The translations under genes were made by a program, and so were the position numbers. Shown here piece after piece: positions 1 through 57,749 of a stretch of DNA of 64,000 bases (position 1 is the first letter of the stretch; every line of letters begins with the position of its first letter). The notes beneath the pieces are model-generated. The model was not told where the DNA came from, ran no database searches, and worked only from the letters and a program-made list of their open reading frames with translations. Source of the DNA: Cyanidioschyzon merolae (taxonomy: Eukaryota); NCBI GenBank assembly GCA_000091205.1, contig AP006491.2; one strand, 5' to 3'.

Positions 1-1189
1 AAAGTTCAGGATAACATCCTCGACGCCGATTGAGAGCACCTCGCACAGCTCGTTCAACAACGCCATTAACGCGACGGTATCCGTTTCCGTGTTGCCCTCC
101 GTGGTCAAGCTGCGCAGCTCGCTCGCGATGCGGCGCAGTCTTGCGGGGACGCTCGAGCCGCCAAAGCCCCCATGGCCAAACGATGGCAAAATCTCGCTCA
201 GACCGGCTCCTAGATGCCGTAGGAGGCCTTGAAGTGTTCCGCCAGTCTCGGGCGGAAGCGACGAAGGCCCCCGCGGTGATGCCCCGCGACGGCGCCCGCT
301 TTGGTGCTCTAGGGGAAAGCCCAGCGACGAGGCCTCGGGTATATCGTCGTTCGTTTCGAGCGGCAGCGAAGCGCTCGTATTAGGCTCTGTGTGCCGTCGG
401 TACCTCGAGTGGTAGCGCCGGCGGCTCCGGCTCTCGCTTGAGTTGATAGAGCTCAGGCCGTCGTTATCCGCTCCTGTACTATCTGAGCCGCCCAGCATTC
501 CGGCCGTGGCCTCGCGCAACGCCCGCTGACGTGAACGGCTCCGACGCATTCGCTTGGATCCTTGGCGCGTTGTTGCCGCGTGTGGTTCTTCCGCAGCGAT
601 TTTCGACTCACTTCTCGTTTCCAGCACTCTACCTACAGGTTCCTTCTCTAAACAAGCACTCCTGCGTTTCCGGTAGCGATGCCCGTCCAACGCCTGACTC
701 TCCACCGCGCGTTGAGTGTTCCGCGCAACCTCCGTTTTCTCGAGTGCAGCACTCTCTACAGCTCCTGCGTGCTGTCCACTCTCTACAGTTGTGGTCTCTG
801 CCTCTTGCCTTGCGAGTCCTGCTGCTCTCTTGGCCACGTTCGCACCCTCAGTGACGGTCTCTTCCCGTGCTCCTGTGTTCCGCTCCACGTGCTGCTGCGC
901 TCTGCTCAAGGCCGACCTTCTGCGACCCCGTGCCATCGACGCAGGGGCCCTTCTCGCCCTCAAGTCCTGACACGGAGAGTTCCTCGACTAAGCGCCGCTG
1001 GAACGCACCACAGCTCCTGTCCAGCGTCTCGTGGTTGTTCCCAACCGCACCCGCCGTAGAACAGCTACAGCGCTAAACGTCACAAACAGAATAGTCACAG
1101 CGAGCGCCGCCGCTGCTCCGAGAATAAAGCCGAGTTGAGCGTGCTTTTCGATCCCAGAAACGAAAGCGATCCGGAGGTGGCGCCGCACC

Positions 1190-1400
1190 CGCACACATAC
1201 ATACACGCATACACACATACACACATACACACATACACACATACACACATACATACATACACACATACATACACACATACACACATACATACATACACAC
1301 ATACACACATACACACATACACACATGCACACATACACATATACACACGTACACGCATACACACATACACACATACACACATACACACATACACATACAG
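1190..1400. repeat. (CACACATA)n / (CA)(TA)-type compound microsatellite, ~210 bp
   Basis: Read directly; it generates the YVCMCVC and HTHIHTY pseudo-ORFs on both strands. Confidence 0.95.
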
Positions 1401-2753
1401 ATTGATAGAGACAGATAGATGGAGTCCGAGAGAACTGCCAGTGCCGCAGCAGGCACAGGCGTTCATGCTGCTGCCTTCTGGACACGTGTGGATACAGGGC
1501 CTCTCATCAGCATCGTTCTGGGGTCCAGGAAGCCTCCGCATGGCGTATTCAAGTGCGAAAACGAGAGAGGTGGTGTTCTGAGGATGAGGAAGCGTTTTTG
1601 CGCTTTCAGCGAAGGCGATGTGTGGCGCCCAGTCCTGTGATTTCCCGCATGGAGCACAGCGGCGCACGGACGCCCCAGTGCCTGGGGAGCGCTCCATGCA
1701 TGCCGTACTTTCGGTACAAGGGCGGCGCTGCGGATAGCGTCGTTCGCGCATCCGCGATTGCCTTGAACTCCATAGAAAAGAGGCCAAACTCCTCCAGCCT
1801 TGGCGAGGTCTCGACGAAAGCGGCTACAGCGCCGTGGACATGCGGACACTGGAGCTGTGCAGGGGTTACCATGAACGCTGCGCTGACCTGCAGATTGGGA
1901 GCGGACGCTTTGCACCAGGGCCTCGCCAAATTCTATGCAGTGCAGCATCGATGTATCGATCCGGACTTGTAGGGGTGTGGGATTGCTGTCCGTATCCGGG
2001 GAAGCGACCGTCGTGCGGCTCCGCGCTTTACCGTTTCCCTTTCGTATCTTTGCCTCGGGGTTGAGGGCGAGATCGATCGAACAGTATGGCTCCACCCGAT
2101 GCCGAGTTTGCTGTGCGCGTGCATTGCACTCCTGGATGCGTTGCCCTAGACGCCATCACGCAGAGAAAGAACAGCTCTCCGCAGCCTCAATAGGCGTCGT
2201 CTCTAGACGGGTCATGAGCGGTACCCATTTCCCGATACGTCGCGCTCGCTTGTGCATACTGGGCGAAGTCGTCATCGGGCAGACGGTGCTCGCTGACTCG
2301 CGTTGCTATCGCGTTCTTCGGACCGTTCTGCATGCGCACTGAAAAGGCAGGCTCCCGAACAATCGCGTCTTTCATGTTTAAGCTTGGAATCGAGGATAGG
2401 TCTCTTGTCTGCCGATGCTCGCTGAAAAGTGGTCAAATCCGCAGCGTATTACAATGCCATTGCCCATGAGTGCATGCCTCTCACACGCGACACCCTGAAC
2501 GTATGCAGACAGCATGTTATCCTGCGCTTTGCCATAGTCTTTGTATTCCGTGCATATGCGGAACCAATGAAAATGACTGCCAAAATGCTCTCCATGAACG
2601 AACCGCATGCCACGGCACGTGAGGGGATCACAGGCTATCTTCGCCCCCGGTGCCTGTCATCCGATGCGGATGCATATCTTCAGAACGCTGGTGCGCAGGG
2701 AGGCTATGCTGCAGCTTCTCCAAAGGGGCGATCTTTCAACCTATTTCGCAAGT

Positions 2754-4148
2754 TTACCTCTTTTTCGAGGAGGATTTTTTCTCTGCTAGTTCGCGCAGCA
2801 TTGAAGCGCGTTTTCGCCGAGACTGCAGCGTATTCTCGGCAACTGCCGAGCCCCGCGTTTCGCTGAAGGGCTTCTCGAGAACAACTTTTGCTGCAGCGAA
2901 ATCCTGTGCTGGAGCGGCACCTGAGGTTTGCACGTCGAGTGCCTGTTCAGTGCCCAAGGTACCCTCCGCGGCCGCCGCGAGCGCTCCCTCTGCAAGTGTG
3001 TTGACTCGCGGCATGGTTCGGGTGACGTGGAACCGACGAACGTGATGATTCCGGCTCCATATGACCCGCGCCAGCAGCCGCAAATAGGCGAGACGCTCAT
3101 CCGGCGAGAGGCTGTACTTTTCTGCGTTGCGCACAAGCTCGACAAGGATGTAGAGAAAGCTCGCATAATTCGATACGACGGGCAACACGCGAACTCGTTT
3201 CGTCCCATATGCCGAGAGACTCGGTCTACCGCCTGGGCCTGGAACGAGCCCCGAGGGCGAAGCGGCGGAAGGCGCCGGGCTAGCACCTTCGACGAAAAAA
3301 TTCGTGGATAAGAGCACGAACGGCATATAGCTACCAATGAATGGGTTCGCACTCGACGCATCGTCTCTGCGGACAAGAATCAGACTTTGTTTCCGCGGTA
3401 AGAATGCTTCGATCCCTAAAATTTTGGCATTGAATCCGCCTCGCTTGAGCGATGCCACGCGTCCGAACAGGAACCGTGGCTTGCCTTCATCAAGCTCCTT
3501 TTCTTGGTCAGCATCTGGCGGCGGCTCCCAAAGGCGATATCGCTCCGCCACCAGCAGTGGCTTGTAATACTGTCCAGAATAGTCTAGCACGGGTTCCTGG
3601 AAGTCGTCCTCTGTGGCGATGAGAGGCATAATCACTTCGTCCCCAACTCGACCCTCACCGAGCACCTCCGCAGGCAGAAACGGCACTTCACGTTTCAAAC
3701 CAAAGTCAACGCGAATGTAAGGTAGTTCCGCAGCCACAATCCGCCCCCGCAGAAGCGTCCCGCTTTTGATCTCTGCGGCCATTGGAGAGCCCTCGAACGC
3801 GGTTCCAAAGTCAGTGGCGTCCGCCGCGTCATCGACAAACGACAGCGCGTTTTCGGAGGCGGCGCTCGACTCCGCCGCGGTGTCAGACAACCGACCTGAA
3901 GACGGAAACGTTCGCTCTGAGGGCTTCACCTCTTGAGCGGGCTCCGATGTAGCCTCCGAGCCTTGTTCGATCGATGAGCTGCGCTTGCTACCGTGGCCCC
4001 CAGCGGACTTCCCACTGTCGCTGTTGCTACTGCTACTACAGCGAAATCGGAACCAGGTATCGTACACGCGCCTCGATCCCAGACTTGTGGCAGCACAGCG
4101 GGTTCCAGTTCTCAAGTAAAGCGATGTGATAACCTTGCCGAGTACCAT
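2754..4148 (-). CDS. S1 RNA-binding domain protein (ribosomal protein S1-like, possibly organellar), hypothetical
   Basis: 464-aa ORF with two S1/OB-like segments (LLRGRIVAAELPYIRVDFGLKREVPFLPAEVLGEGRVGDEVIMPLIATED; FLFGRVASLKRGGFNAKILGIEAFLPRKQ) and a basic Ser/Lys-rich C-terminus. The family call rests on motif resemblance only. Confidence 0.35.
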   Translation of the reverse strand: MVLGKVITSLYLRTGTRCAATSLGSRRVYDTWFRFRCSSSSNSDSGKSAGGHGSKRSSSIEQGSEATSEPAQEVKPSERTFPSSGRLSDTAAESSAASENALSFVDDAADATDFGTAFEGSPMAAEIKSGTLLRGRIVAAELPYIRVDFGLKREVPFLPAEVLGEGRVGDEVIMPLIATEDDFQEPVLDYSGQYYKPLLVAERYRLWEPPPDADQEKELDEGKPRFLFGRVASLKRGGFNAKILGIEAFLPRKQSLILVRRDDASSANPFIGSYMPFVLLSTNFFVEGASPAPSAASPSGLVPGPGGRPSLSAYGTKRVRVLPVVSNYASFLYILVELVRNAEKYSLSPDERLAYLRLLARVIWSRNHHVRRFHVTRTMPRVNTLAEGALAAAAEGTLGTEQALDVQTSGAAPAQDFAAAKVVLEKPFSETRGSAVAENTLQSRRKRASMLRELAEKKSSSKKR

Positions 4149-21039: not shown

Positions 21040-21240
21040 TCATGAACGATGCGACGCCACCATCAGCGATCGATCGATTGATTTGACATAGTGTGGCGCT
21101 GCGTGCGCGCGATGCGGCGCCACCATCACCGATCGATCGATTGATTTGACGTAGTGTGGCGCTGCGTGCGCGCGATGCGACGCCACCATCAGCGATCGAT
21201 CGATTGATCTTTGATACTGAGCGCTGTCCTGCAGGTGCAC
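21040..21240. repeat. Tandem repeat, ~61-bp unit x 3
   Basis: Three near-identical copies of ...gatcgatcgattgatttgacgtagtgtggcgctgcgtgcgcgcgatgcg(a/g)cgccaccatca(g/c)c... Confidence 0.85.
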
Positions 21241-25093: not shown

Positions 25094-25270
25094 TCACGCA
25101 ATACGCGTCATGCGATCTGCGCAGTGCGATGTGCGTAGGTCGATACGCATAGTGCGATGCGTGTAGTGCGATGCGTGTAGGTCGTTACGCGCAGTGCGAT
25201 GCGTGTAGTGCGATGCGTGTAGGTCGATACGCGCAGTGCGATGCGTGTAGTGCGATGCGCTCATGCAGCC
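25094..25270. repeat. Tandem repeat (15-bp gtgcgatgcgtgtag subunit within a ~45-bp unit, ~4 copies)
   Basis: Read directly; it produces the ASHYTHRTARIDLH peptide repeats in the spurious ORF 25094-26059. Confidence 0.85.
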
Positions 25271-27638: not shown

Positions 27639-28135
27639 CCCGAGAACACGACCGGGAATCCCTAAACGAAATATGAATCCATAAGCCCATATTGCTGCAC
27701 TTTCATGTCAAGGCTATCCCTGGAGAGCATGCTCGGAACAAAAAATCTCGTGGTACGAACAGAGCGATCAGTGCTGTGCCACTTTAATCTCATATGCGCT
27801 GATAGACTTTCACATGCATTGCGTTCCACACCCAGGGGAATGGCATCAAATGCTTCTTCACGGTTGATAGTGGATGCGTTCGAAGTGCGCTCAGTTGAGG
27901 AAACAAAAATTCAAGGGAAACTTATGGACATGAAAGTCGGGGATCCTGGAGCCCGATCATCGCCGAGCGCCGACTAAAAACGAGAAAACCCTCTCCTCGC
28001 CGATCGTCGAGTGAAAAAGGGCAAGCGACAAAGAAGAAGAGAAGGAGAGCTTGACGAGAAAAGTGCTTTGCCCGAGGAGACAATGACGAGAATGCAGTGG
28101 CCATGAGGGCACCAGCTTGAGGACGCCTTGCACTG

Positions 28136-28348
28136 GTGAGTTCAAACAGCGACAATGAACGCAAGGAGTTCGTGAACCGAGACTTCACCGCCGCTATCTA
28201 TCTCAGAAGATGTGTGGAGCTGACCACGAGACCCGAGGAGCTGACGCCATCCAACTTCCTGGGTTACACTCTAATGCCCGCAGCGCACAAGGAAAAGCTG
28301 AAACCGTTCGCAGCGGGCCAGTCAAACAAGTCTAGGAGGCGTCCGTGA
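28136..28348 (+). pseudogene. TnpB/Fanzor-like RuvC-III C-terminal fragment (5'-truncated copy)
   Basis: KEFVNRDFTAAIYLRRCVELTTRPEELTPSNFLGYTL...KEKLKPFAAGQS parallels the C-terminus of the 55055-56128 ORF (MEFVNRDFNAASNIRRCAV...PELTRVNFVGQPL...GKLKPFVWGRS). An in-frame stop lies just upstream, at 28118-28120. Confidence 0.5.
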
Positions 28349-28360
28349 TTACATATGTAT
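28337..28360 (+). repeat. Perfect 10-bp-stem hairpin (GTGATTACAT-atgt-ATGTAATCAC) overlapping the stop codon of the Fanzor-like fragment
   Basis: Palindrome read directly from the sequence. Confidence 0.6.
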
Positions 28361-28457
28361 GTAATCACCATGGTCGTGGAGATTTTTTCGTTTTACTGAT
28401 CACCCGTACCCGCCCGCGCCTTGCGGAGCTCTCGCCCAAATCGCTGTCGTTTGCGCT

Positions 28458-32184: not shown

Positions 32185-33665
32185 ACTACCTTCCCTCTAG
32201 GCACTCAACGACTGTTGTCGATAACGAGCGTGCACCAGCGCACAGCGCAGAAGCATCGATTCGCTTCCGCCGCGCACGCATGAGAGGCACCCGCGCGTGC
32301 ATCCATCGTCCTGCATGGAGGACGTGTCACGCGCGTGCGGATGCAATCGGGGGCGTAGGCATCGCTGCGGGGATGGGGGGGGGCCTAAAGCGGCATCGCG
32401 CCCCCGCACTCGTGACAGATAAACGTGGGACACTGACCTGCTCCGCATGGTCACGTTTTTTGAATTTCCCCTTAAACATTGTTTTAAATTTGTAGCCTCG
32501 ACATTCGACGTGCTTTGAAATGGCCGAGGGACTCCCACGTACTTCGGAGATTCTTGGTCGTGCTTTTTTTGGAGTGGCGCGACTGACACTTTTCTGCTAG
32601 AAATTGTAGAGTCACCGGAGTCAAGATTATTCGCGACGCTCCTGAACACGGGGTCGTAAAACAGCCGATATCCGTATCCGATGCACACGCGCAAGCCTCC
32701 GCGCTTCTCAGTTCCTCACATGTAGCATGCTCAAATCATACTTGCTTTAGGTTTCGGCGCTTCATATTCCAGGCAACTCGTGGACGCTGCAGTTCGCCCC
32801 ACGTGATTGACGAGAAACGGTACTCGGCGTCGTTCGCTGACACGTTCCTCACAAGCCCATGCCGAACGTTCTTCGAACCACTCACGTCAAATTAGACTGG
32901 AGCCCGTTCGAAATACAAATCATCAGCTCTCTGCGGGCATCAAAGAAACGGAATTCGACAACTGCATGGTACCTCTTATGAAATATGCGATCGGAGGCTC
33001 CCGTCTCCTCTGTTCACGTGGAACATGAGATGCTGTGCGTGAACCGCAGCGACCTTCTGAGCATGGAATTTTCGGACCGGAACGGGAGGCAGTGAAGCCG
33101 GGACCTGAACCCTATCACCAACATCCCTCTACTGCTTAATTCGAGCTGGATGGGCATCGGCGACCAGCATATCTACAGTCTGAGAGAAAAGAGAGCAAGC
33201 CGAAGCAGATGCAGTGCAAATCCTGCACTGCTTGGTGTTCATCACAGCATGAAGAGACCCGAACGTTAGCATCTACACCCGAATGATGTAGGTGGACTCA
33301 TTCAACTTTGTCCTGACTTTGGTACGGATCGCGAGTTGTGGCGACACCAGAGGCGATTTTTTCGGTCTCACAGCACGTTTCCACGTAGAGCAGAGATTCC
33401 CTCGTGCGCGCGTCGCATCAGGACCCGGAAAAGCGTGCATCATTCCAAGCCCTATTTCCAAGATCCACGATCCAAACCTCCCTTTGGAGGAACGGGTCGT
33501 TTCCCACGTTCCACCGTGTGCCGAGCCTACAGGAAGCGTCTATGGTAGTCGTTGAACCGTCGGTGCCGACGCAGCACAGATACAGAACGGCTTTGGTAGA
33601 CCGTTGCGGGAGTCGGCTTCAGAACGCCGCTCGCTGAAGCACGTTCGGCGCTTGAGCAACCTAGT

Positions 33666-36064: not shown

Positions 36065-36343
36065 TTACTGTTTCTTGACCATTCGCTGCATGATAAACAG
36101 CGATGCGTCAAGGAAGCGCTCGGCACAGTTCGATAAACATTCTGTCTCCGAGCTCGACAGTTTGCTGCCAGGCTTTTGGACGCATTTGTCCCAGCAGAGC
36201 TCTGTGAGCTTCGCAATTACTGCTTGCACAGCAGCCTTTTGGTTTTCTTGCTCTAAAAAGTTGCTAAACTCTTGCTGCGCGGGGCTAGACGGCGAATCTG
36301 ACAGATCCCCAAACCCACTCGAACTACTTGAACCAAAAGACAT
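36065..36343 (-). CDS. Small TIM (Tim8/Tim13 family) mitochondrial intermembrane-space chaperone
   Basis: Twin CX3C motif CWDKC-x15-CLSNC (AKLTELCWDKCVQKPGSKLSSSETECLSNCAERFLDASLFIMQR); ~92 aa from the MSFGSSS start. Confidence 0.6.
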   Translation of the reverse strand: MSFGSSSSSGFGDLSDSPSSPAQQEFSNFLEQENQKAAVQAVIAKLTELCWDKCVQKPGSKLSSSETECLSNCAERFLDASLFIMQRMVKKQ

Positions 36344-36579
36344 GACTTGCGGACAGTTCGGGTGATACGGCCGCTTCCAGCGGGTCACAGGAGCGAAGGC
36401 TCTCGACGACCGCCGGGTAAATGAATATCCACGCGCCGATCCCTGCCAGCCCTTTTCGACCGGCCGCTTCTATCGGTTTGCGTTTATCTCGAGGCACACT
36501 TCGAGCGTTAGAAGCTGCCGGACGAGGTTGGCTCCCGTCAGCTCCGCGGGTCTCGTCGTCAGCTCCGCAGGTCTCGTCG

Positions 36580-36822
36580 TCAGATATGGCTGGCGGGGCT
36601 AAAGTCTCGGTTCACGAACTTTATGCGTTTATCGCCACTGGTTGAACTCATCAATGCAAGGAGTCCTCGAACTCGTGCCCTCAGTGCCATGTGCTGCTCT
36701 GACAGCTCTGTGTGCTTTTCTACCGCCGAGGCGCTCCGCTGGCTTCTCTCTATCTCGATCTTCTCAGGTGTAGAGCCCAGATCACTCCTTGGACTTCTCA
36801 TCTCTTCAAAAAATGAACCCAC
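36580..36822 (-). pseudogene. TnpB/Fanzor-like RuvC-III fragment
   Basis: ALRARVRGLLALMSSTSGDKRIKFVNRDFSPASHI parallels ERRAKMRRLLESVSTINDKKLMEFVNRDFNAASNI in the 55055-56128 ORF. Short ORF with no upstream RuvC-I/II. Confidence 0.45.
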
Positions 36823-36899
36823 ATGTTTATGCCGTTAGGTAAGGACCTTACCGGATGGAGAAGGACTTGCACGAGGAAGACTGCACGTGCCCCGGTGTG

Positions 36900-37640
36900 T
36901 CATCGTGTGCTGAACGCTTCAGCGATTCGCTCAGAGGAGCGATCATTACGTTTCACGATAGCAAACACTCCCTCGACGCGGTTGAACGTCGAAGCGTACG
37001 GAGGAATGAAAAGCAGCTCTACTTCCCGATAGAATCGGCAAAAGCTCGAACGCAAGGGCGATTGGTGAAATGCTACGTTGTGTGATAGGTGGACATCACC
37101 AGATGTCAGGCGGAGAGTCTTTAATGATTCGACAAAGTGATTGCTGTCGTATGAGCCTTCTCTACGAGCGAAACTGAGGTCGCCAAATATATCCACTGCA
37201 GCCAGAACGGAGAATATCATTCTTCTCTTCGAGTTTGATCTCTCATATAGCGAGTTGTCCTCTCTGCGAGTAGCCATATACGCTTCGATCGTTTCGTCCG
37301 GAGAAAGTCCAATTGACTGAAAAAACAAACCGTCGTCCCTGTGCTTCTCACCGATCGCGACATTCCAGGAATTCTGTCGTTGCGATTTCGGTGGAGGATG
37401 TTCTCGCTTGAACTAGGACTCTTTTTTGCGACTGTATTCCAGTGTTTTCAGGATCACACGTACATCCTGTTGAGAAACATAGAAGCCCGCGGCGGCTGCC
37501 ATCGTCGCTTTTTCCTTCCGTAACGTGTTCAACGGATCATATTCTACATTGACCGCAGGCACACTTTGAGCATATCGGTCCTCGGCTCGAAGCGCATTTC
37601 CTTCTTTGTTTCGGTGTTCCCGAACCATCTGAGTACAGAG
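36900..37640 (-). pseudogene. Degenerate DDE transposase (Tc1/mariner-IS630 DDE_3 superfamily) remnant
   Basis: C-terminal motif ELLFIPPYASTFNRVEGVFAIVK resembles the DDE_3 tail (LLFLPPYSPDLNPIExVW..VK). The upstream SWNVAIGEKHRDDGLFF resembles the first-D region (W..V.FSDES.F) but with GEK in place of DES. The ORF is broken, and the track starts it at a TTG. Confidence 0.45.
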
Positions 37641-39599
37641 ATATGACCGACCCCGAGGATGAATGCAGTCCTCCTTTCGCTGTTCAGTAAAGACTGTATC
37701 CTACAGACACTTCGTCTACGATCTATACGGTACAATGCATCCTGGTTTTTCTGATTTCCTGCTGTGCACTGTGCGAAAGCATACGACTGCACGCAGCGGG
37801 GTTGAAACGACCTCGAGTTCGTTGAAAGACGACAAGTGCGCACTCGGCGACACCGCGCCAACGGCACTTGTACGGGTCTGTGTGCGTTGCTTCGGATGCT
37901 GCTCGTACAGGTTCCATCGCGAGACGAACGCGCCTCTGGTACCCGCGAACCGACATACGCTGATGTTCACGACACCCGGGACATGACACTTGATTCTTAC
38001 GACGCTTCAGCCGTGACAAGACTGGATACATATGCATCGGATTATGGACGAGGAAGAGATCGCTCACGCTCGAGTCGCCTTTGCATGGGATGGTGCACCT
38101 GGAGCGCGCTAGAGTCGTGGTGCGACGCAGCGTATGACACCACGCACTGTCTCCATTGGGCGCTGCGCGAAGACCCATCCATGAGAACGTCCACGCGTGC
38201 AAACAACTCTGTTTTCTGATGCGGCCGGGAGTGCTCGTGGTTGCGCGTATCGCACGCAACTGCTGCTGCGCTCCGGTTGCTCGAAGCAACTTGTTTATGT
38301 TGAATTTGCTGAGCGTCATACAGGATCGGGCTCGAGTGCCAAGTGAATAGGAATTGCACAGACAGGTGTGCTCCGGATGCCGCGATCGGTGCCGCATGTC
38401 GTCGCCAGCGAGCGTCTAGCATAATCTCTCGGCCTATTTCATTGGTTTCCTAAGGATAAAGCAAGTGCCCAGTGACTTGCAAATGCCGTTGTGCGATTTG
38501 AATTCCTTGCATATACAGAAACAGGCTCCTAACTCGCCGTTGAATGAGGTCGCGCCCGTCCAGCAGTTCCGATTTTTACGAAGCCACTGCATGCAGCACG
38601 TTCATGAGGCGCGCAGCCGCCAGACGTCGAGATCCCATCCATGGAGCGCGATCCTGTGAGCCCGGCAGCGTATATATGCTCGTTACGTAGAGACAGAGTT
38701 ACCAGTCATCGATCATGCACCCAGATGGAAACGAAAGCAGACCCAGCAACCAAGCGTCTGCGTCGACAGGGGAAGCAGCGTGTACCTCACGTGTCGCTGG
38801 CTTCAGTTGAGAGCGAATCCATCCTCCAAGCGTGAGGAATCCGTCACGGCCTTGTGGATTTGGCTCCAGCTGGTGACCTGCGATCTGAAGACCCGCTCAG
38901 ACGATCTTCGGGACTGCGGCGTACATACACTGTGATGATTCGCGGTTCTGCGCGTGACCAGGAGTTTCCATCAGCATTGTCGGTCGTCGGAAGAGGCATC
39001 GGCCACGGCCGCGGCATGGTCCACGACGCTCCGTTCGGAAGCACAACGCGTAGCAATTCGAAACGCGGCCGAGTCGCCCGGCGTACAAGCGTGCGCACAC
39101 CGCCCATCGTCCGCGGTCAGGATGTACAGAAGCCCACCGAGTTCACGCGCTCTTCTACCAGGAAGCTGTCCGAGTGTAAAGGTTAGTGACTGTCCAAAAC
39201 CAGTGATTCTTCCAAACGGCTGCGTACTGGCGACCACCGGTGTGCGATTGCCTTGCACTCAGAAGTAGTGACAAGAGATGATCCACTATTTGACTCTGTC
39301 AGCGCTTTGGGTAAGAGCCCTAGCTCCGAGAGATTCCCAGTTCGAGCGTACTCATCTTCGTGCAAGTGCAAGTCGTTCCAGATCGCCAACGCGAGAAGCT
39401 TCACTTACGCTCTCAAAACACGAACACTAGTTAAAGTTGCCCACACACCGAGGAAACAAAGAGCCTCCTGGGAATCCGAGTTATACGTACGCTTCACAGA
39501 ACGTCCGTGTAATGCAGGGGAGCTTGCCGGTTAGGGTCGCAGCGGTGCGTCCCCGGTGAAACTACTGGGAAGCGGCGCGCGCATGCAGATCCGAACGTG

Positions 39600-39775
39600 C
39601 GCCAGCGCATGCGCATCGCGTCCGGGATCGGGCGATGTCCAGTTCGTCCCATTGTTTACACTATAGTACATGATCGCGTCCGGGATCGGGCGATGTCCAG
39701 TTCGTCCCATTGTTTACACTATAGTGGATGATCGCGTCCGGGATCGTGCGATGTCCAGTTCAACTCATCATAATC
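39600..39775. repeat. Minisatellite, ~57-bp unit x 3
   Basis: catgatcgcgtccgggatcgggcgatgtccagttcgtcccattgtttacactatagtaca repeated three times with minor variation. Confidence 0.85.
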
Positions 39776-49890: not shown

Positions 49891-50039
49891 GGTGTGAAAA
49901 TGCCGCTTCAGGGAAGCTACCGCTGTGCTCCTCGATCTTGAAGCATATGTGGACACTAAAACGATAAACGCTCGGCAAACCGTAGCGTGCATAGAGACAC
50001 CCAGTCACAAACGCTTCCCAGCAAAAATTGCCAGCTGCC

Positions 50040-50260
50040 TGTTGTCGACTTCAGGTTATCCAGGAGCAGAACGAGCCTCAGAGGCTGCACCACAAGTTTG
50101 GATTGCGACAGCGCCTCGAGTCCCGTCTTCGGCACCGCACATTTTTCGGATATGAATGGCGGCGTCCGGGTTGCGGTTCGCGACCTCCATGCGTTTTTTG
50201 CCTCTGGTTCAACGCCTTAACGCAAGGATTGCTAGAACTCGTGCCCTATGTGCTACTACA
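50040..50260 (-). pseudogene. Highly degenerate TnpB/Fanzor-like RuvC-III remnant
   Basis: Reverse-complement translation gives GKKRMEVANRNPDAAIHIRKMCGAEDGTRGAVAIQ, parallel to MEFVNRDFNAASNIRRCAVMAKRAPELTRVNF. The adjacent DNA (50196-50250) is ~75% identical to 36640-36690, the equivalent part of the 36580 copy. Frameshifts are present. Confidence 0.35.
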
Positions 50261-50664
50261 GTCTCGTCATCGTCCCATCGGACAAACATCGGTCCTCTCC
50301 TATCTCTCGTCTCCATCTTCTTCTTCTTCGTTACTTGCTCCTCTCTGCTATATGGTCAGCGACACGAGGATTTTTTCTTTTTGTTTCTGTTGAATCCAGC
50401 GACATCGAATCCTCTGGGATCCGCGACTTCTACGTCCATACATTTCCCCTGGATTTCCATTTCTTCAAATCAAGGCACTTGCATTGCGTCAGCTATAGTA
50501 CGCGAAATAGCATCTGACGACACGCACCTCAGCGTGGCGCCTCGTGGAAATGAACGCTTGTAGAAAGAATCGGCGTGCGAACGTATCGACTCGGTGGCGT
50601 AGACGCCGTCGCTGGCGCTCCGGTTAGCCGGCGTCGCGCAGCAGCGCCTGCGCCACATGAGCTT

Positions 50665-51180
50665 TCCGCTCCCGGGAATCGACATAAACGTTGTCTGGGG
50701 TACGCTAAGATTACCGTTGCTCTGCTCCTGATTTCTGTATTTCTGTATCTGGGAATTTGCGTATTCGCGTATCGGGGAATCGACATAAACGTTGTCTGGG
50801 ACACGCGTAGATTACCGCTGCTCTGCTCCTGATTTCTGTATTTCTGTATCTGCGAATTTGCGTATTTGCGTATCGGGGAATCGACACAAACGTTGTCTGG
50901 GACACGCGTAGATTACCGTTGCTCTGCTCCTGATTTCTGTATTTCTGTATCTGCGAATTTGCGTATTTGCGTATCGGGGAATCGACACAAACATTGTCTG
51001 GGGTACGCTAAGATTACCGTTGCTCTGCTCCTGATTTCTGTATTTCTGTATCTGCGAATTTGCGTATTTGCGTATCGGGGAATCGACATAAACGTTGTCT
51101 GGGGTACGCCTAGATTACCGTTGCTCCGCTCCTGATTTCTGTATTTCTGTATCTGCGAATTTGCGTATTTGCGTATCGCC
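50665..51180. repeat. Minisatellite, ~100-110-bp unit x ~5
   Basis: Repeating unit gggaatcgacataaacgttgtctgggg/acacgc(g/t)tagattaccgttgctctgctcctgatttctgtatttctgtatctgcgaatttgcgtatttgcgtatcg, with a few SNPs between copies. Confidence 0.85.
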
Positions 51181-52992: not shown

Positions 52993-54666
52993 CTAAAACG
53001 TTGCAGAGTCCTCTAGGTCGTCGTCCGGCAACGCCACGAGATCTCTGTACCCGCTCAACAAATCCGCGAAGCGTTGCCGCTGCCGAATGATGCGCCAACG
53101 ATTACCCTGAACCATGAGCTCGCCCGGTAGCACCTTCATATTGTAGTTGCTCGCCATGGACATGCAGTATGCTCCGCTGTCCATTACAGCGAGACCCGTG
53201 CCGGGTGCGGGTAGCGGAAGCACCCGCGCTTTTCCCAAGAAATCACTCGATTCGCAGACTGGCCCCACGATGTCGTATGTCGCCATTTGCTCGCCGGCTA
53301 CTCCGGGCTCAGTCAGGGTGATCAACTGGTACGCTCCGTACAGCGCTGGTCGAATCAGCTCCGCCATCGATCCGTCGACGACGATGAAGCGCTTATCGCC
53401 ATTCCGTTTGACTCCAATGACCCTACACACCAGGATGCCGGCATTCCCAATGAGGGAACGCCCCGGCTCAATGATGAGGGTTAGGTCGCGTCCCGCTAAA
53501 CACGGCCGAATCGCATCGATGAGCTCCTGCGGGGTCGGGATGCGTTCGCCTTTCCGCTCATAATCGATCCCGAGACCACCACCGATATTCAGGAAGCGAA
53601 TACTGTGGAAACCACGTGCACTGATTTCGTCGATCACTTGAAGCATGGTCACAACATTGTCGTGAAAAAGTTCCACTTTTTTGATGGTGGACCCCAGATG
53701 CGAATGGACACCGACCAGCTCGACCTGTGCTTCATTTTGTCTGATTCGATCCAGAAACCAGCGCAGTTGATCGGTGCGAATACCAAACTTGCTCGTTGCA
53801 AGCCCAGTGCTCACATACGGATGCACCTGGGGATCGATGTCAGGGTTGATGCGGAGCAGGACGCGTGCCTTGCGTCCTTCGCGCTTCGCCGCCGCTAAAA
53901 TATTCTCGAGATCGAACTCCGAGTCGACGTTGATGAGACACTCTGCTCGAACGGCAAGGGCGATTTCCTGAGGCGTTTTCCCGTTTCCGTTGAAGACCGT
54001 GCGTCGCATATCGAAGCCGGCGAGTCGCGCTAGGCGCAGTTCGTTGCCACTCACCAGAACTGCCCCACATCCGCGTTCACGCACAAGCTGCATAATCATC
54101 AAGTTGTTGTTGGCCTTGACAGCGTAGCCGATGATGGCATCCATACCTGCCAGCGCTTCCTGGTACGCTCGCACGTTCGCCTCAATGCGGCTCTGCGAGT
54201 AGAGGTAGAATGGCGATGCCTCAGGTCCCAGGGCGTCTTGAATGTCCTTCACGCGCACCTCCTCGCAGTACAGGAACCCGTCGCTTCCCACTTCGAACTG
54301 GGGTGCTGGATTCTGCACCGCAGGCGCTGCAACGACCTGCATTCGAAGCAGCTGCGAGGCCTGCAGGCCGCTAGACGAGGCTTGACTCTCGACGCCGTGA
54401 AAAGGTCGACGGCACCAAGCCCCGATCGTCCTCCGTCGCCGTCGTGAGCACGCACCCGACCCCAGACGCAACCAAGACGCCGACGCCTTGGCGTATACTC
54501 CTACTGCAAACATAGCCGCCCGAAGCAAGTCCAGTGCGGCTATAAAACGAACGTTGTGACGAGTTGGAAGCGTAGGCACACGCGTCCTGCCGTGTCTACC
54601 AAAAGCGAAATTTGCGCTGCGGGTGCGCGGCGCCGGTTTTTTTTTCATTGGACAAAAGGTTGCCAC
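52993..54666 (-). CDS. lysA: Diaminopimelate decarboxylase (LysA; PLP-dependent Orn/DAP/Arg decarboxylase family) with N-terminal extension
   Basis: PFYLYSQSRIEANVRAYQEAL...IGYAVKANNNLMIMQLV (PLP Lys in YAVKAN), GSG..VVSGNEL, HSHLGSTI, GGGLGIDY, and the C-terminal beta-barrel EPGRSLIGNAGILVCRVIGVK...CESSD. 557 aa. Confidence 0.8.
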   Translation of the reverse strand: MATFCPMKKKPAPRTRSANFAFGRHGRTRVPTLPTRHNVRFIAALDLLRAAMFAVGVYAKASASWLRLGSGACSRRRRRTIGAWCRRPFHGVESQASSSGLQASQLLRMQVVAAPAVQNPAPQFEVGSDGFLYCEEVRVKDIQDALGPEASPFYLYSQSRIEANVRAYQEALAGMDAIIGYAVKANNNLMIMQLVRERGCGAVLVSGNELRLARLAGFDMRRTVFNGNGKTPQEIALAVRAECLINVDSEFDLENILAAAKREGRKARVLLRINPDIDPQVHPYVSTGLATSKFGIRTDQLRWFLDRIRQNEAQVELVGVHSHLGSTIKKVELFHDNVVTMLQVIDEISARGFHSIRFLNIGGGLGIDYERKGERIPTPQELIDAIRPCLAGRDLTLIIEPGRSLIGNAGILVCRVIGVKRNGDKRFIVVDGSMAELIRPALYGAYQLITLTEPGVAGEQMATYDIVGPVCESSDFLGKARVLPLPAPGTGLAVMDSGAYCMSMASNYNMKVLPGELMVQGNRWRIIRQRQRFADLLSGYRDLVALPDDDLEDSATF

Positions 54667-54764
54667 AGGCCAGCGATCCCCGACTAGGCCTTTTTATCAG
54701 CACGCGGTGAAGCAGCCATCGATCCACGCCCTACTTCCAAGTTCCAAAACCCATAGATCTTCTC

Positions 54765-54810
54765 GGGTATGCTGGTGGTTTCATAATGTCTATCGTACGC
54801 CGAGCCTGCC
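54765..54810. repeat. ~45-bp dispersed repeat copy (left boundary of the AT-rich island)
   Basis: gctggtggtttcataatgtctatcgtacgccgagcctgccgtgagcg is ~75% identical to 57676-57722 (tctggtcgtttcatacgtcctagcatgtgccgagcctaccgaaagcg). Confidence 0.5.
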
Positions 54811-55054
54811 GTGAGCGTTTAAAATAGCGCGTAAAGCACCTCTGCAGTCGTGGCACGGAGACAGAACTGGGTTGCCATACCAGAGAGGGCGTCGGCTCGA
54901 GACCAAGCTCATCCATGCCAAAGCACACTAAGCCTATCCGAAACTGCGCCCTTGACCACCACCACCACCAGCAGCAGCAGCAGCAGCAGCCGCGAACGCT
55001 TTCCAAGCATCAAACGCTGCATAACCGGTGCACAGTAGCGGCGACCGACGCGAC

Positions 55055-56128
55055 CTAGACGAAATATCTCCCGCCGACATGCAGACGCCTAAAGGTCTTT
55101 AACGACCTGCCCCATACGAATGGCTTCAGCTTCCCCTTGTACAATTCGGCCCTGAGAGGTTGTCCAACAAAGTTGACTCGTGTCAACTCCGGGGCTCTCT
55201 TTGCCATTACTGCACATCTCCTGATATTGCTGGCGGCGTTAAAGTCCCGGTTCACAAACTCCATAAGTTTCTTGTCATTGATTGTACTTACTGATTCAAG
55301 TAGCCTTCGCATTTTCGCCCTCCTTTCCATTTGGTCGTCTGTCAGCCGTCCGTACTTTGCTATATCCTCAGGGCTCCGCTGGCACTTTTCCATATCGACC
55401 CTCTGGGGTGTACAACCCAGTTCATGGTGCGTATACGATGTTCGGAACTCATCTACAGGTATTGTAACAAAACGCCGTGCGCACTCTATGTACGTTCTCG
55501 TAGTTCGAGCTGGTGTACACCCGTTTTGGGTCTTCCAGCGCCCTGCTCCGTATGCTACTACGAGCCTCTGACTTTCATCCTCTTTGAGGGCACTCAACGG
55601 ACTGAAAAAGTTCGCGAACGCCCGCTGCCTCCCACAGCATAGATTCATACGCAAACGAGCACACCGGGGCTTTGTATACTCTTTCCACAGCGCCTCCCAG
55701 TGAGCAGCACGAACTTCACTGAACTCCCGAAAAGCATCAAAGTCCGCTCCGCGGCTCGTCACCTCGCTCAAGGCTTCCAGGTGATCCTTCATTCCTGAAT
55801 TCCATGTCTCAGTTTTCTTTCTTGCATTCCTTGTACCGGATTCTCGATAGTACCTTGCTCTCGAGAACCTCAACAGACGCATGTCTTTCTGACGCAAGTT
55901 GCCGGCAGTACCATCTTCCGCACGTTTGGGTACTGCGATGGTTATGATATTTGTGTTTCCGGGGTTCACACCTACCGCAAAGTCGTCACCGTGCACTTTC
56001 TGCATCGCAGGATCCGCCACCTTCTCATCTTCATGCTTTGTCACGGGCGCAGCCGAGGGCGGAACTGGACGATCCGCCTTCAAGCGCCGATAGCGTACAC
56101 ACATGGCTACTCCATCGGTTTCGATCAT
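55055..56128 (-). CDS. TnpB/Fanzor-like RuvC nuclease-fold ORF (eukaryotic OMEGA/IS605-OrfB homolog); RuvC-I Asp replaced by Asn
   Basis: RuvC-I-like FAVGVNPGNTNIITIA (cf. GIDPG); bridge and RuvC-II region LVVAYGAGRWKTQNGCTPARTTRTYIECARRFVTIPVDEFRTSYT (cf. vaiGdw...V..VdEyrTSk); degraded Zn-finger (GCTPQ...KCQRS); RuvC-III MEFVNRDFNAASNIRR (cf. nRDvNAAiNI). Sits in a distinctly AT-richer ~2.8-kb island. Confidence 0.55.
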   Translation of the reverse strand: MIETDGVAMCVRYRRLKADRPVPPSAAPVTKHEDEKVADPAMQKVHGDDFAVGVNPGNTNIITIAVPKRAEDGTAGNLRQKDMRLLRFSRARYYRESGTRNARKKTETWNSGMKDHLEALSEVTSRGADFDAFREFSEVRAAHWEALWKEYTKPRCARLRMNLCCGRQRAFANFFSPLSALKEDESQRLVVAYGAGRWKTQNGCTPARTTRTYIECARRFVTIPVDEFRTSYTHHELGCTPQRVDMEKCQRSPEDIAKYGRLTDDQMERRAKMRRLLESVSTINDKKLMEFVNRDFNAASNIRRCAVMAKRAPELTRVNFVGQPLRAELYKGKLKPFVWGRSLKTFRRLHVGGRYFV

Positions 56129-56339
56129 CCCAGTGAGTACTTTTGTTTGCTCACTTTGAGACGTTTGAAATCGAAGATATGCTTCCAGTACGTCTCCCGG
56201 TTTTCACCGGAGAACTCCTACCTGTTAACATTGAACTCGGGACTGGTCTCCTTTATGATGCCTTGGAGGACTCTGGAGCTGATAGTCACAAAATGTGACT
56301 TGATGGTGCACAACGGAACGCCATTGAAGCGCTTACCCA

Positions 56340-57101
56340 TTAGGAGAGCCTTCCGTCCCTCCCACTCTTCATGTTTTCCTCTCTCAGCTTCATCTCCGCC
56401 TTGCGTTCGAGTTCTCGATTCAGGAATACGAAATAGAGCAGGATGATGTGATAACATCTTTTATCATCTTTTTTTTTCATATCTGATGCCTTTTCTGCTG
56501 GATTCGCCATTCCCAAGACTGGACAGTGCTCTTGTACAACCGCACGGATTACAGAAGCTTCATTCGTGCTCTCGTTTGGCGCCTTCTTGTCGACAAAATC
56601 GATCTCATCTTCATGCTTGCGATCGTTCGTGATGCCGTTGATAATCGCCCATATTCCTTTGCGAGAGATGCACGGGTAACGTGCAAACACGGCGCGTATC
56701 ATGAAACGTTCGAGGTTCATAGTCGAATGGTTCTTCAGGTTCGTGATGTACTTCATCGTTCCGTATATGTAAATATGACGGTCACCCCTGTATCGAGTAC
56801 CGTTGAAGCTGTAGAAGGGATGTTTTTCGTGGAGGGCGTGAACCCACTCATTTTCCTTTCGCGTTGCCTCTGTAGCAAGCATGAGGTGACGAATAAAGAT
56901 CATGTCGAAGAACTCGTCCGGAATCTCGACCGTTTCCATGTGCTTCACGTCGTGATACATCTCACTCCCCGAATGCATCAGTCCTGACGACGCCTTGACG
57001 ATGGTCTTGGAGTACGAGTCGACACGGTTCCTAATGGCCTCTCGCAACTTTTCCTTGTACGGATCCTGGATATGTTCAAGAAGAAAGCTTTTCGCCACCA
57101 T
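56340..57101 (-). CDS. Hypothetical ORF directly upstream (same strand) of the Fanzor-like ORF; possibly its N-terminal part separated by an intron or frameshift, or an accessory gene
   Basis: 253-aa ORF with the same AT-rich composition as the Fanzor-like ORF; KLREAIRNRV weakly recalls the TnpB WED-domain (R.vyN..l) motif. By-eye similarity to ORF 26934-27638. Confidence 0.25.
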   Translation of the reverse strand: MVAKSFLLEHIQDPYKEKLREAIRNRVDSYSKTIVKASSGLMHSGSEMYHDVKHMETVEIPDEFFDMIFIRHLMLATEATRKENEWVHALHEKHPFYSFNGTRYRGDRHIYIYGTMKYITNLKNHSTMNLERFMIRAVFARYPCISRKGIWAIINGITNDRKHEDEIDFVDKKAPNESTNEASVIRAVVQEHCPVLGMANPAEKASDMKKKDDKRCYHIILLYFVFLNRELERKAEMKLREENMKSGRDGRLS

Positions 57102-57662
57102 CTCGTCGTACAGCCGTCTTTCTTGTCGCCTTCGACATAGGGCCTCTCCCGTTTTGATTCTTTCTCTCTTCCGTTTCTTCTGGACTTGGAATTTTTTTTG
57201 TTTTTTCTGGTAGCCGGCGACACTGGGCCTCCAGGATTGTCGACTTGCTCCTACATAACTTTCCTTTTTTAGTTTTTTTAAAAAGAATACTCTTTAAACG
57301 CTTCTCTTATATACTGCGAAAAAACACTCGAGTATTTTTACTTGAGGGTTGAAACAGAAATGAACTGAAAACTATACTTTGCTACGACCTCAACGGAAAT
57401 CCGACTTTTACAGCTGAGCAACACGCTCCTGCTCAGGATCACGTTTCCCTTCAACAGCGGCTTACGTGTCGCGTCTCACGCCTGCCTGATCCCCCAGTTG
57501 CGCTCACCGGGCGCGATTCTCTTTTTCATAGACAAGACGTTTACTTGTGCCAGCATTCTCCGATTACGCGCATTTTTCTTTTCTTACCATTTTTTATGTG
57601 TTTTTTTCAGTGTGCGGTGACGTATCCATCAACCCCCTACTCCCAAGTTACATCATCTAAAC

Positions 57663-57722
57663 TTCTTCTCTGATATTCTGGTCGTTTCATACGTCCTAGC
57701 ATGTGCCGAGCCTACCGAAAGC
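57663..57722. repeat. ~35-45-bp repeat: direct with 54765-54810, inverted with 61130-61197
   Basis: acttcttctctgatattctggtcgtttcatacgtcctag has a reverse-complement match at 61160-61197 (acttcttctcGgatattctggtcgtttcatacgtccta, 1 mismatch in 37 bp). Confidence 0.7.
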
Positions 57723-57749
57723 GACAGCAATGGCGCCTATAGAACATGC

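Follow-up and report, generated by a model that had tools for sequence, protein, structure and literature searches.

Tail-only copies of a Fanzor1 family in Cyanidioschyzon merolae as probable relics of internally deleted, non-autonomous elements

Introduction

Fanzor1 is an already solved and characterised RNA-guided nuclease, and one family of it is known from the red alga Cyanidioschyzon merolae, the genome of which is compact and intron-poor with a G+C content of ~57%. This family, CMe-1A, was described as having ~150 copies with ~80% identity to a consensus of ~3 kb, as lacking terminal inverted repeats (TIRs), and as being of unknown classification (Bao and Jurka, 2013, Mob DNA 4:12, PMC3627910). 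The supplement of that study provides a consensus of 3169 bp and a protein of 734 amino acids, and the study further noted purifying selection on the full-length copies and found the first 635 bp of CMe-1A to be 95% identical to a second repeat, TE-N2_CMe. A C4 zinc finger between the [TS][TS] and RD residues forms part of the Fanzor motif described there, and two mariner-type elements that carry Fanzor1, PUl-1 and PGv-1, were reported to possess TIRs of 24-33 bp and TA target-site duplications (Bao and Jurka, 2013, PMC3627910). In other Fanzor and TnpB elements, the omega-RNA is encoded in the 3' end region (2023, PMC10432273).

The window considered here is a stretch of 64,000 nucleotides from contig AP006491.2 of C. 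merolae (assembly GCA_000091205.1), within which eight long open reading frames (ORFs) are identical to annotated proteins of C. merolae 10D (BAM80075-BAM80094). An original prediction made from the sequence alone had recognised a Fanzor-like ORF of 357 residues (55055-56128, minus strand) and three further loci with the same RuvC-III tail, and had taken them for a repetitive and at some point mobile family. It is evident that this view was right and that the family is the one already published as CMe-1A with its ~150 copies (Bao and Jurka, 2013, PMC3627910). Organism and sequence family are the same, the published copy number, identity of ~80% and lack of TIRs all fit, and the identification is to this extent a rediscovery. 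The three tails align to the last 260-350 nt of CMe-1A before the 3' UTR. While the published account covers full-length CMe-1A and the TE-N2_CMe repeat that matches its 5' 635 bp, it mentions neither derivatives in which a 5' part is joined to the 3' tail nor a transposase (Bao and Jurka, 2013, PMC3627910).

The results presented below leave the understanding of Fanzor biology unchanged. They suggest, however, that the tail-only loci represent two amplified lineages of deletion derivatives and not random debris. Two further points are new: one of these lineages physically ties a Fanzor gene to a mariner-type transposase, which offers a modest lead on the classification of an unclassified family, and the published 3.2-kb consensus appears to be composite at its 5' end. 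All three should be of use mainly in annotating the repeats of this model red alga, whose genome is tiny and well finished, and would also help in reconstructing an active CMe-1 Fanzor together with its guide RNA.

Identity of the parent family

Taken singly, the 357-aa reference ORF returned nothing relevant in Pfam, NCBIfam and PDB sequence searches, which means that the Fanzor label originally given to it had come from motif recognition alone. A shallow profile of 32 sequences of the family likewise returned nothing relevant in these searches, and an exact look-up of the ORF in public gene collections gave no record. Relatives are nevertheless plentiful: 302 close ones were found in public metagenomes, many of the protein matches being partial, and a search of 1.8 billion cluster representatives yielded 1395 representatives of 50%-identity clusters. 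Detection of the homology to Fanzor1 required a diverse family profile of 80 sequences. Against the solved structures, this profile matched PpFz1 of Parasitella (9cf0, 2.8e-20), SpuFz1 of Spizellomyces (8gkh, 2.8e-13) and GtFz1 of Guillardia (9cer, 7.8e-8), and no nuclease family in the PDB was matched besides Fanzor1. In the corresponding alignment of 80 diverse members (A4), the catalytic triad is readily recognised, with D176 and E348 invariant and D417 conserved in at least 90% of the members; these residues are the RuvC-I aspartate (DPG), the glutamate of VDEFRT (near [TS][TS]) and the aspartate of NRD (the RD of RuvC-III).

Structure prediction leads to the same assignment. The AlphaFold2 model of the protein P0006, computed with the 80-sequence alignment, reached a pLDDT of 80.4 and a pTM of 0.75, and a prediction from a shallow alignment of 41 close paralogues reached a pLDDT of only 37.8. 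When the P0006 model was compared with the PDB by Foldseek, ranks 1-7 were all Fanzor1 (E = 5e-10 to 2e-6, probability 1.0) and the next places were taken by Cas12 variants. Profile homology and predicted fold are two independent tests, and their agreement supports the parent family of the tails as a true Fanzor1 with a predicted TnpB/Cas12-type fold and a split RuvC domain; the original label holds on both counts, as the family profile matches solved Fanzor1 proteins and the best PDB matches of the predicted fold are Fanzor1.

The likeness to the solved proteins SpuFz1 (8GKH), PpFz1 (9CF0) and GtFz1 (9CER) extends as profile homology from the TDG motif through RuvC-I, DEFRTS and NRD, and the fold is the same, but the identity is only 12-17%. 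Two features set the CMe proteins apart. First, they lack a clear CxxC…CxxC zinc finger between DEFRTS and NRD: the segment from [TS][TS]/DEFRTS to NRD reads FRTSYTHHELGCTLQRVEMEKCQRSPED… and holds two histidines and two cysteines without CxxC pairs, so a canonical C4 zinc finger is not evident. One distant relative gave a sub-threshold match to a Cas12f1-like TNB/zinc-ribbon domain (E=0.0023). Second, unlike the solved Fanzor1 proteins, they carry an internal repeat of ~22 residues in variable number before RuvC-I. This tandem repeat (…VVDxxKHEEKKEAxPATQEVEDND…) lies just N-terminal of RuvC-I, at columns ~290-400 of alignment A2, and occurs from once to about six times depending on the copy; in the window ORF 55055-56128 it is found around residues 30-45.

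The full-length copy and the three tail loci

The 357-aa ORF is the last part of a longer gene (Table 1). From comparison with longer relatives, the upstream ORFs 56218-56457 and 56340-57101 are parts of this protein as well. Its true start codon, at 57254-57256, is upstream as in the published CMe-1 protein and directly followed by TAG; the frame is broken twice, into 56340-57101, 56218-56457 (56218-57457 region) and 55055-56128. The RuvC-I motif reads GVNPG, with the aspartate changed to asparagine, where most family members have GADPG. The stop codon is at 55055-55057 and the 3' UTR runs to ~54993-54997. This copy is, as read from its broken frame, a pseudogene. Immediately downstream of it lies a gene for a diaminopimelate/ornithine decarboxylase with a long N-terminal extension (52993-54666, minus strand).

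Table 1. Fanzor1-related features of the 64,000-nucleotide window, with the evidence for each
Feature	Position	Strand	Evidence
Copy A, short internally deleted derivative, ~620 bp	27782-28401	+	nhmmer, two adjacent matches; consensus mapping
Residual 70-aa ORF inside copy A (…EFVNRDFTAAIYLRRC…KLKPF…)	28136-28348	+	ORF; tblastn
Copy B, composite element, ~1.4 kb	36383-37800	-	nhmmer hmm2103-2450, E=1e-53; Pfam DDE_3
Degenerate Tc1/mariner/IS630-type transposase gene, head of copy B	~36787-37800	-	Pfam DDE_3
Copy C, same short type as copy A, most decayed	49951-50559	-	nhmmer; blastn; consensus mapping
Near-full-length CMe-1A Fanzor1 pseudogene	54993-57534	-	consensus 646-3169 aligned at 57517-54993

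All three further loci with a RuvC-III tail are present, with a similarity far above chance by tblastn, blastn and a nucleotide profile. Searching the window with the 357-aa ORF by tblastn recovered 28127-28357 (plus strand, E=1e-13) and 36583-36783 (minus strand, E=1e-12) and gave no match at the third locus, ~50040-50260. The latter was missed because it is too decayed, with a frameshift, mutated motifs (MEVANRNPDAAIHIRK / CAVPKTGLEALSQSKLVVQPL) and NRD turned into NRN; it is found by blastn, in which 36502-36687 matches 50072-50253 (E=1e-17). All three are detected with nhmmer when a nucleotide profile is used that was derived from 158 matches to the element in related contigs: copy B at 36784-36431 (minus strand, E=1.2e-53), copy A at 28098-28345 (plus strand, E=4.4e-38) and copy C at 50248-50008 (minus strand, E=3.9e-21). 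The similarity originally noted between the copies at 36580 and 50040 is real, but in place of ~75% over ~55 bp it amounts to 70% over 186 nt (B against C); copies A and B are 77% identical over 166 nt, and copy B and the reference 67% over 289 nt. The loci, too, had been correctly placed, although the true features (Table 1) extend well past the predicted intervals of 28136-28348, 36580-36822 and ~50040-50260.

Of the motif EFVNRDF.AA..RRC..PEL..NF.G..KLKPF, which all three loci had been thought to encode, the tail as such stands, and it is intact only in copy A. Copy B reads KFVNRDFSPASHI, followed by a stop, a frameshift and, in another frame of the six-frame reading, a duplicated TTRPAEL segment. 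Copy C can be read only with a frameshift and carries NRN in place of the NRD of RuvC-III. Copies A and B keep only the RuvC-III aspartate of the catalytic triad. The absence of RuvC-I and RuvC-II from these loci was correctly predicted: profile positions 434-2100, covering REC/WED, RuvC-I and RuvC-II, are undetectable by nhmmer at A, B and C.

Copies A and C share a short, internally deleted structure

Copy A consists of two parts of the full-length element brought together. Its 5' part (27782-28097) corresponds to CMe-1A consensus positions 785-1069, that is, the leader and the first ~54 codons with the start-codon motif at 27924-27951, and its tail (28098-28345) to the last ~91 codons including RuvC-III, followed by a 3' end of the short family's own to ~28401. 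The junction, 28097|28098, is marked by two adjacent nhmmer matches, hmm134-434 ending at 28097 and hmm2198-2445 starting at 28098. Just upstream of the residual 70-aa ORF, a TGA stands in the ancestral reading frame. Copy C is built in the same manner: its 5' part (50554-50267) corresponds to consensus 794-1068, the junction lies at ~50250 and the 3' end at ~49951, and the profile matches it in two pieces, 50539-50315 and 50248-50008, the second being the frameshifted tail. In published coordinates, consensus ~785-1069 has been joined to ~2836-3080 (~1069|2836). With the real start codon at consensus 906, the deletion is internal to the ORF and takes out approximately codons 55-643 (~589 codons), with REC/WED, RuvC-I and RuvC-II. 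The reading of the 5' part as an untranslated leader was rejected, as the true start codon lies upstream and the deletion falls within the ORF.

The same two-piece structure is found in L024 (=L063), L030, L041, L057, L058, L062 and L065, which together with A and C makes nine independent loci. These related loci are metagenome contigs, two of which (L003 and L083) are 99-100% identical to the window; they presumably belong to Cyanidioschyzon-like algae, as was verified for some. A multiple alignment of the short copies shows one common junction (…GACGAGACTGTAGTGGCACAG|AGGGCACGAGTTC…) and a common 3' end, with flanks that are unrelated between loci. The consensus of the short family is open in frame through the junction (…DDETVVAQ|RARVRGILALMS…FVNRDFNAAINIRRC…; also written …DDETVVAQ|RARVRG…). 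An open frame in the consensus is what would be expected of a fresh in-frame deletion and is thus not evidence of function. The three possibilities originally offered for the tails, truncation, introns and internal deletion, can hence be narrowed: internal deletion stands, given that the 5' region abuts the 3' tail and that the junction recurs at unrelated loci, simple truncation does not, and nothing supports introns.

Both copies contain an inverted repeat in which a segment ~100 nt upstream pairs with the start-codon region, 27805-27819 with 27924-27938 in copy A and 50428-50447 with 50546-50565 in copy C; the sequences differ between the two, and the pairing over 15-20 nt is kept. A tandem array of five 101-bp units that are 95% identical (50674-51178) lies ~115 bp from the 5' end of copy C and is unrelated to the Fanzor element.

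Copy B joins a Fanzor tail to a DDE transposase gene

Copy B is of a different make. Its Fanzor tail (36784-36431) holds the last ~122 codons, begins ~95 nt earlier in the profile (position 2103) than the tails of A and C, and ends at ~36383; a 21-bp duplication at 36536-36583 lies within it. The Fanzor 5' part was not detected here by the nhmmer profile. At the junction, ~36784, the element passes from just before the Fanzor start codon to approximately codon 612 (consensus ~903|2741). In L041, L024/L063 and L030, the short elements are preceded by sequence with ~71% identity to the 1 kb upstream of the B tail (36787-37800); this head is present at five loci, four of them other than B, and the B junction is also found in L011/L026. 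Copy B was considered as a simple 5' truncation, and this was rejected because the upstream 1 kb is common to other short elements. The flanks outside the unit differ among B, L041, L063 and L030, which indicates that the transposase and the Fanzor remnant were copied as a whole.

Within the head, the ORF 36900-37328 matches Pfam DDE_3 (PF13358) with 39.1 bits against a gathering cutoff of 28.6. A transposase consensus stitched by hand from four copies raises the DDE_3 score to 51.9 bits and adds weak but correctly ordered matches to HTH_Tnp_IS630, HTH_33 and HTH_Tnp_Tc3_2. Judged by these profile matches, the head is a degenerate transposase gene of the DDE_3 type (Tc1/mariner-IS630) with N-terminal helix-turn-helix domains; it is a pseudogene in every copy. 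A search for an intact relative returned only B's own orthologue, and among ~65 full-length copies there is no full-length Fanzor beside a DDE_3 gene. Like PUl-1 and PGv-1, copy B and its relatives carry a DDE transposase gene of the Tc1/mariner superfamily 5' of a Fanzor gene, on the same strand and within one mobile unit. In contrast to PUl-1 and PGv-1, neither of the two genes is intact, each being a pseudogene, and of the Fanzor part only the tail is left. Moreover, where PUl-1 and PGv-1 have TIRs and TA duplications, neither was found at copy B and its relatives in an inverted-repeat scan of 36250-38050 and in alignments of the 5' ends of four copies and the 3' ends of eleven.

Ends of the elements

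For the A, B and C types of copy alike, inverted-repeat scans and end alignments defined no TIRs or target-site duplications; the original prediction had suggested looking for the latter. Between the last ~70 nt of the short family and the 3' end of the full-length copies there is only a partial match, and on the 5' side the A/C type has its boundary ~140 nt within the full-length element, so that the short elements do not have the exact termini of the full-length copies sampled. Non-autonomous DNA elements that arise by internal deletion include the Ac/Ds type and the precursors of MITEs. The short C. merolae units resemble these in that both end regions of a longer element are combined at a single deletion junction, in their amplification to many sites and in their lack of coding capacity. 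They differ from the Ac/Ds type in that their termini are not demonstrably those of the longer element and in that TIRs and target-site duplications were not found.

The 3' end of the full-length copies (…GAAAGGCG) is at many loci followed by T/G-rich simple-repeat tails (tttgttgttg…, gtggtggtg…), and in the window the 3' flank of the full copy (~54950-54992) is (CTG)n(GTG)n. Such tails could reflect a target preference, could be added on insertion or could be part of the element.

Decay and lineage of the short copies

Mismatches to the full-length consensus were counted by codon position over the tail region. The nine short copies show 0.35/0.29/0.39 mismatches at the three positions, and frameshifting indels occur in 9/9; in the 65 full-length copies the values are 0.087/0.072/0.172, with frameshifts in 8. 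The flat pattern and the frameshifts indicate that the short copies evolve neutrally. The full-length copies, by their codon-position pattern, were, or still are, under purifying selection. Identity to their own consensus is 75-82% (mean 78%) for the short copies and ~85% for the full-length ones. The short copies reach only ~65% against the full-length consensus, and they thus form an older, separate lineage.

The contig L083, from a 99%-identical strain, carries both the A and the B insertion and so offers no empty site for either. In Cyanidiococcus yangmingshanensis, of the sister genus, the gene order DUF2470-S1-calnexin-GDI-Tim10-pBrp-PPR-GST is kept. Searches of the syntenic region with the nucleotide profile and by tblastn detected neither Fanzor nor DDE sequence, and both A and B are missing there. 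The spacer between Tim10 and pBrp measures 2.2 kb in Cyanidiococcus as against 4.6 kb in the window, the two genomes being too diverged for insertion boundaries at base level. Copies A and B thus appear to be lineage-specific insertions and not host exons.

Origin of the short elements

Overall, all three loci are very probably relics, evolving neutrally, of non-autonomous elements that arose by internal deletion within the C. merolae Fanzor1 family CMe-1/CMe-1A. An ancestral element lost ~589 codons (~55 to ~643), including REC/WED, RuvC-I and RuvC-II. The unit of ~600 bp left behind retains the leader on the 5' side, an N-terminus rich in lysine and arginine, the final ~91 codons with RuvC-III and the C-terminal tail, and a 3' end that bears a short hairpin, and it was dispersed with its single junction to many unrelated sites, A and C being two of these. 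Copy B derives from a related unit in which a DDE transposase gene of the Tc1/mariner/IS630 type is placed immediately upstream in the same orientation, with a separate deletion to approximately codon 612. None of the copies can encode a nuclease, and all have decayed since then without selection on the protein. The units may have been moved by proteins supplied in trans, those of the B-type lineage most likely by the DDE transposase. For the retention of the tail, the simplest reading is a geometric one: mobilisable derivatives must presumably keep the 3' terminus, the last 90-120 codons are no more than ~350 nt away from it, and the tail would survive only through this position.

A more speculative extension, which we offer tentatively, is that the C. 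merolae Fanzor1 family was originally the cargo of a DDE transposon of the Tc1/mariner-IS630 type, of which B and its relatives would be the last remnants, and that the mini-elements persisted since their 3' end, with its terminal hairpin and possible omega-RNA scaffold, was required in cis.

That the short elements are functional satellites which supply only a guide RNA, their 3' end being kept as an omega-RNA scaffold while full-length Fanzor acting in trans maintains or spreads them by RNA-guided homing, is unlikely, though several features of the 3' end would suit it. Every derivative retains the last 260-350 nt of the gene. The full-length copies end in a hairpin of 9-12 bp; it occurs with two different sequences, and each of them folds (mean z -2.4, with z < -1.5 in 33/48), and their 3' UTR has a further hairpin right after the stop codon; the short family has a terminal hairpin of its own, GTGAAACG-TTTAT-CGTTTTAC, with one compensated version in L024. 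The signs of constraint that such a role would leave are, however, weak or missing. Third-codon-position divergence is flat along the ORF (0.17-0.26) without a dip at the tail, and the divergence of the 3' UTR (0.18) is near that of the non-coding 5' region (0.20). Hardly any conserved structure is predicted by RNAalifold (-4.55 kcal/mol for the tail, -2.5 for the final 170 columns), and three consensus helices built by hand show no covariation, with 88.9% of cells paired as against 88.5% in shuffles. With a z-score of -1.74, the consensus tail folds little better than shuffles, the short copies are ~20% diverged from their own consensus with many indels, and no Rfam match occurs anywhere in the window. 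With the RNA tests weak or negative, the omega-RNA reading is retained as a minority alternative.

It is less probable still, and we would give it little weight, that the three loci are independent random fragments, each a full-length insertion that lost sequence where it stood, by truncation or deletion, while no deleted unit was ever amplified. The family is old enough for this (its copies are ~15-20% diverged from the consensus), fragmented copies are common, as the many partial protein matches attest, and no target-site duplications are available that would prove insertion of the short units as wholes. Independent decay would not be expected, though, to leave the same junction and the same diagnostic 3' end in A, C and at least seven other loci with unrelated flanks, nor to give B a junction common to L011/L026 and a 1-kb head common to four other loci, and the short copies cluster round their own consensus (78% mean) and not round that of the full-length copies (65%).

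The last alternative is that the tails belong, as exons or domains, to a conserved host gene family, the exon form being what the original prediction had named as the outcome that would overturn it, or that they represent a domesticated protein consisting of the tail only. This is largely refuted and seems extremely improbable: copy A does keep a 70-aa ORF with a well-preserved RuvC-III motif, and the short-family consensus is open through the junction, but an open frame is expected of a recent derivative of coding sequence, with a prior of one in three for an in-frame junction, and against a host gene stand the frameshifting indels in 9/9 short copies with their nearly flat codon-position pattern and lack of codon bias, the stops and frameshifts in B and C, the intergenic position of the loci beside differing neighbours, and the absence of A and B from the syntenic Cyanidiococcus region.

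TE-N2_CMe and other repeats of the window

The repeat similar to TE-N2_CMe (CMe-1A consensus 1-635) is represented in the window by six copies or fragments, at 61242-60767 (-), 54651-54911 (+), 33372-33623 (+), 40895-40718 (-), 57612-57745 (+) and 1975-2207 (+), of which that at 54651-54911 overlaps the 5' end region of the decarboxylase gene 52993-54666 (-). Of the matches in the window and the related loci taken together, 34/53 have a sharp end at consensus position 1; this end is always preceded by a T-run (gaTTTTTTTc|CGATGACAAAACGTTTAC), and the opposite one is ragged. Viewed from the complementary strand, these are the features of a retroposon (SINE/LINE-like) with an A-tail and a truncated 5' end.

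The sequence upstream of the start of the Fanzor core (TCGCGCTCGGTGAGCGCA) varies among copies (57517-57760 in the window; L078, L029, L072, L066/L002 and others). In some copies, including that of the window, an inverted TE-N2 abuts the core with its A-run; others have a third common module (tcggacacgtgtccttcatcgatcggtgaggcgtctcgcg) upstream of the core, and about a quarter have TE-N2 in the published orientation. Given these differing modules, the published 3169-bp consensus looks composite at its 5' end, and the 5' 635 bp of CMe-1A behave, in the copies sampled here, as an optional and separately dispersed repeat and not as a fixed part of the element.

Finally, further tandem repeats occur in the window at 1195-1395 (25 copies of ACACACAT), 21047-21208 (2.6 copies of a 63-bp unit), 25101-25259 (3.8 copies of a 42-bp unit) and 39615-39761 (2.5 copies of a 58-bp unit).
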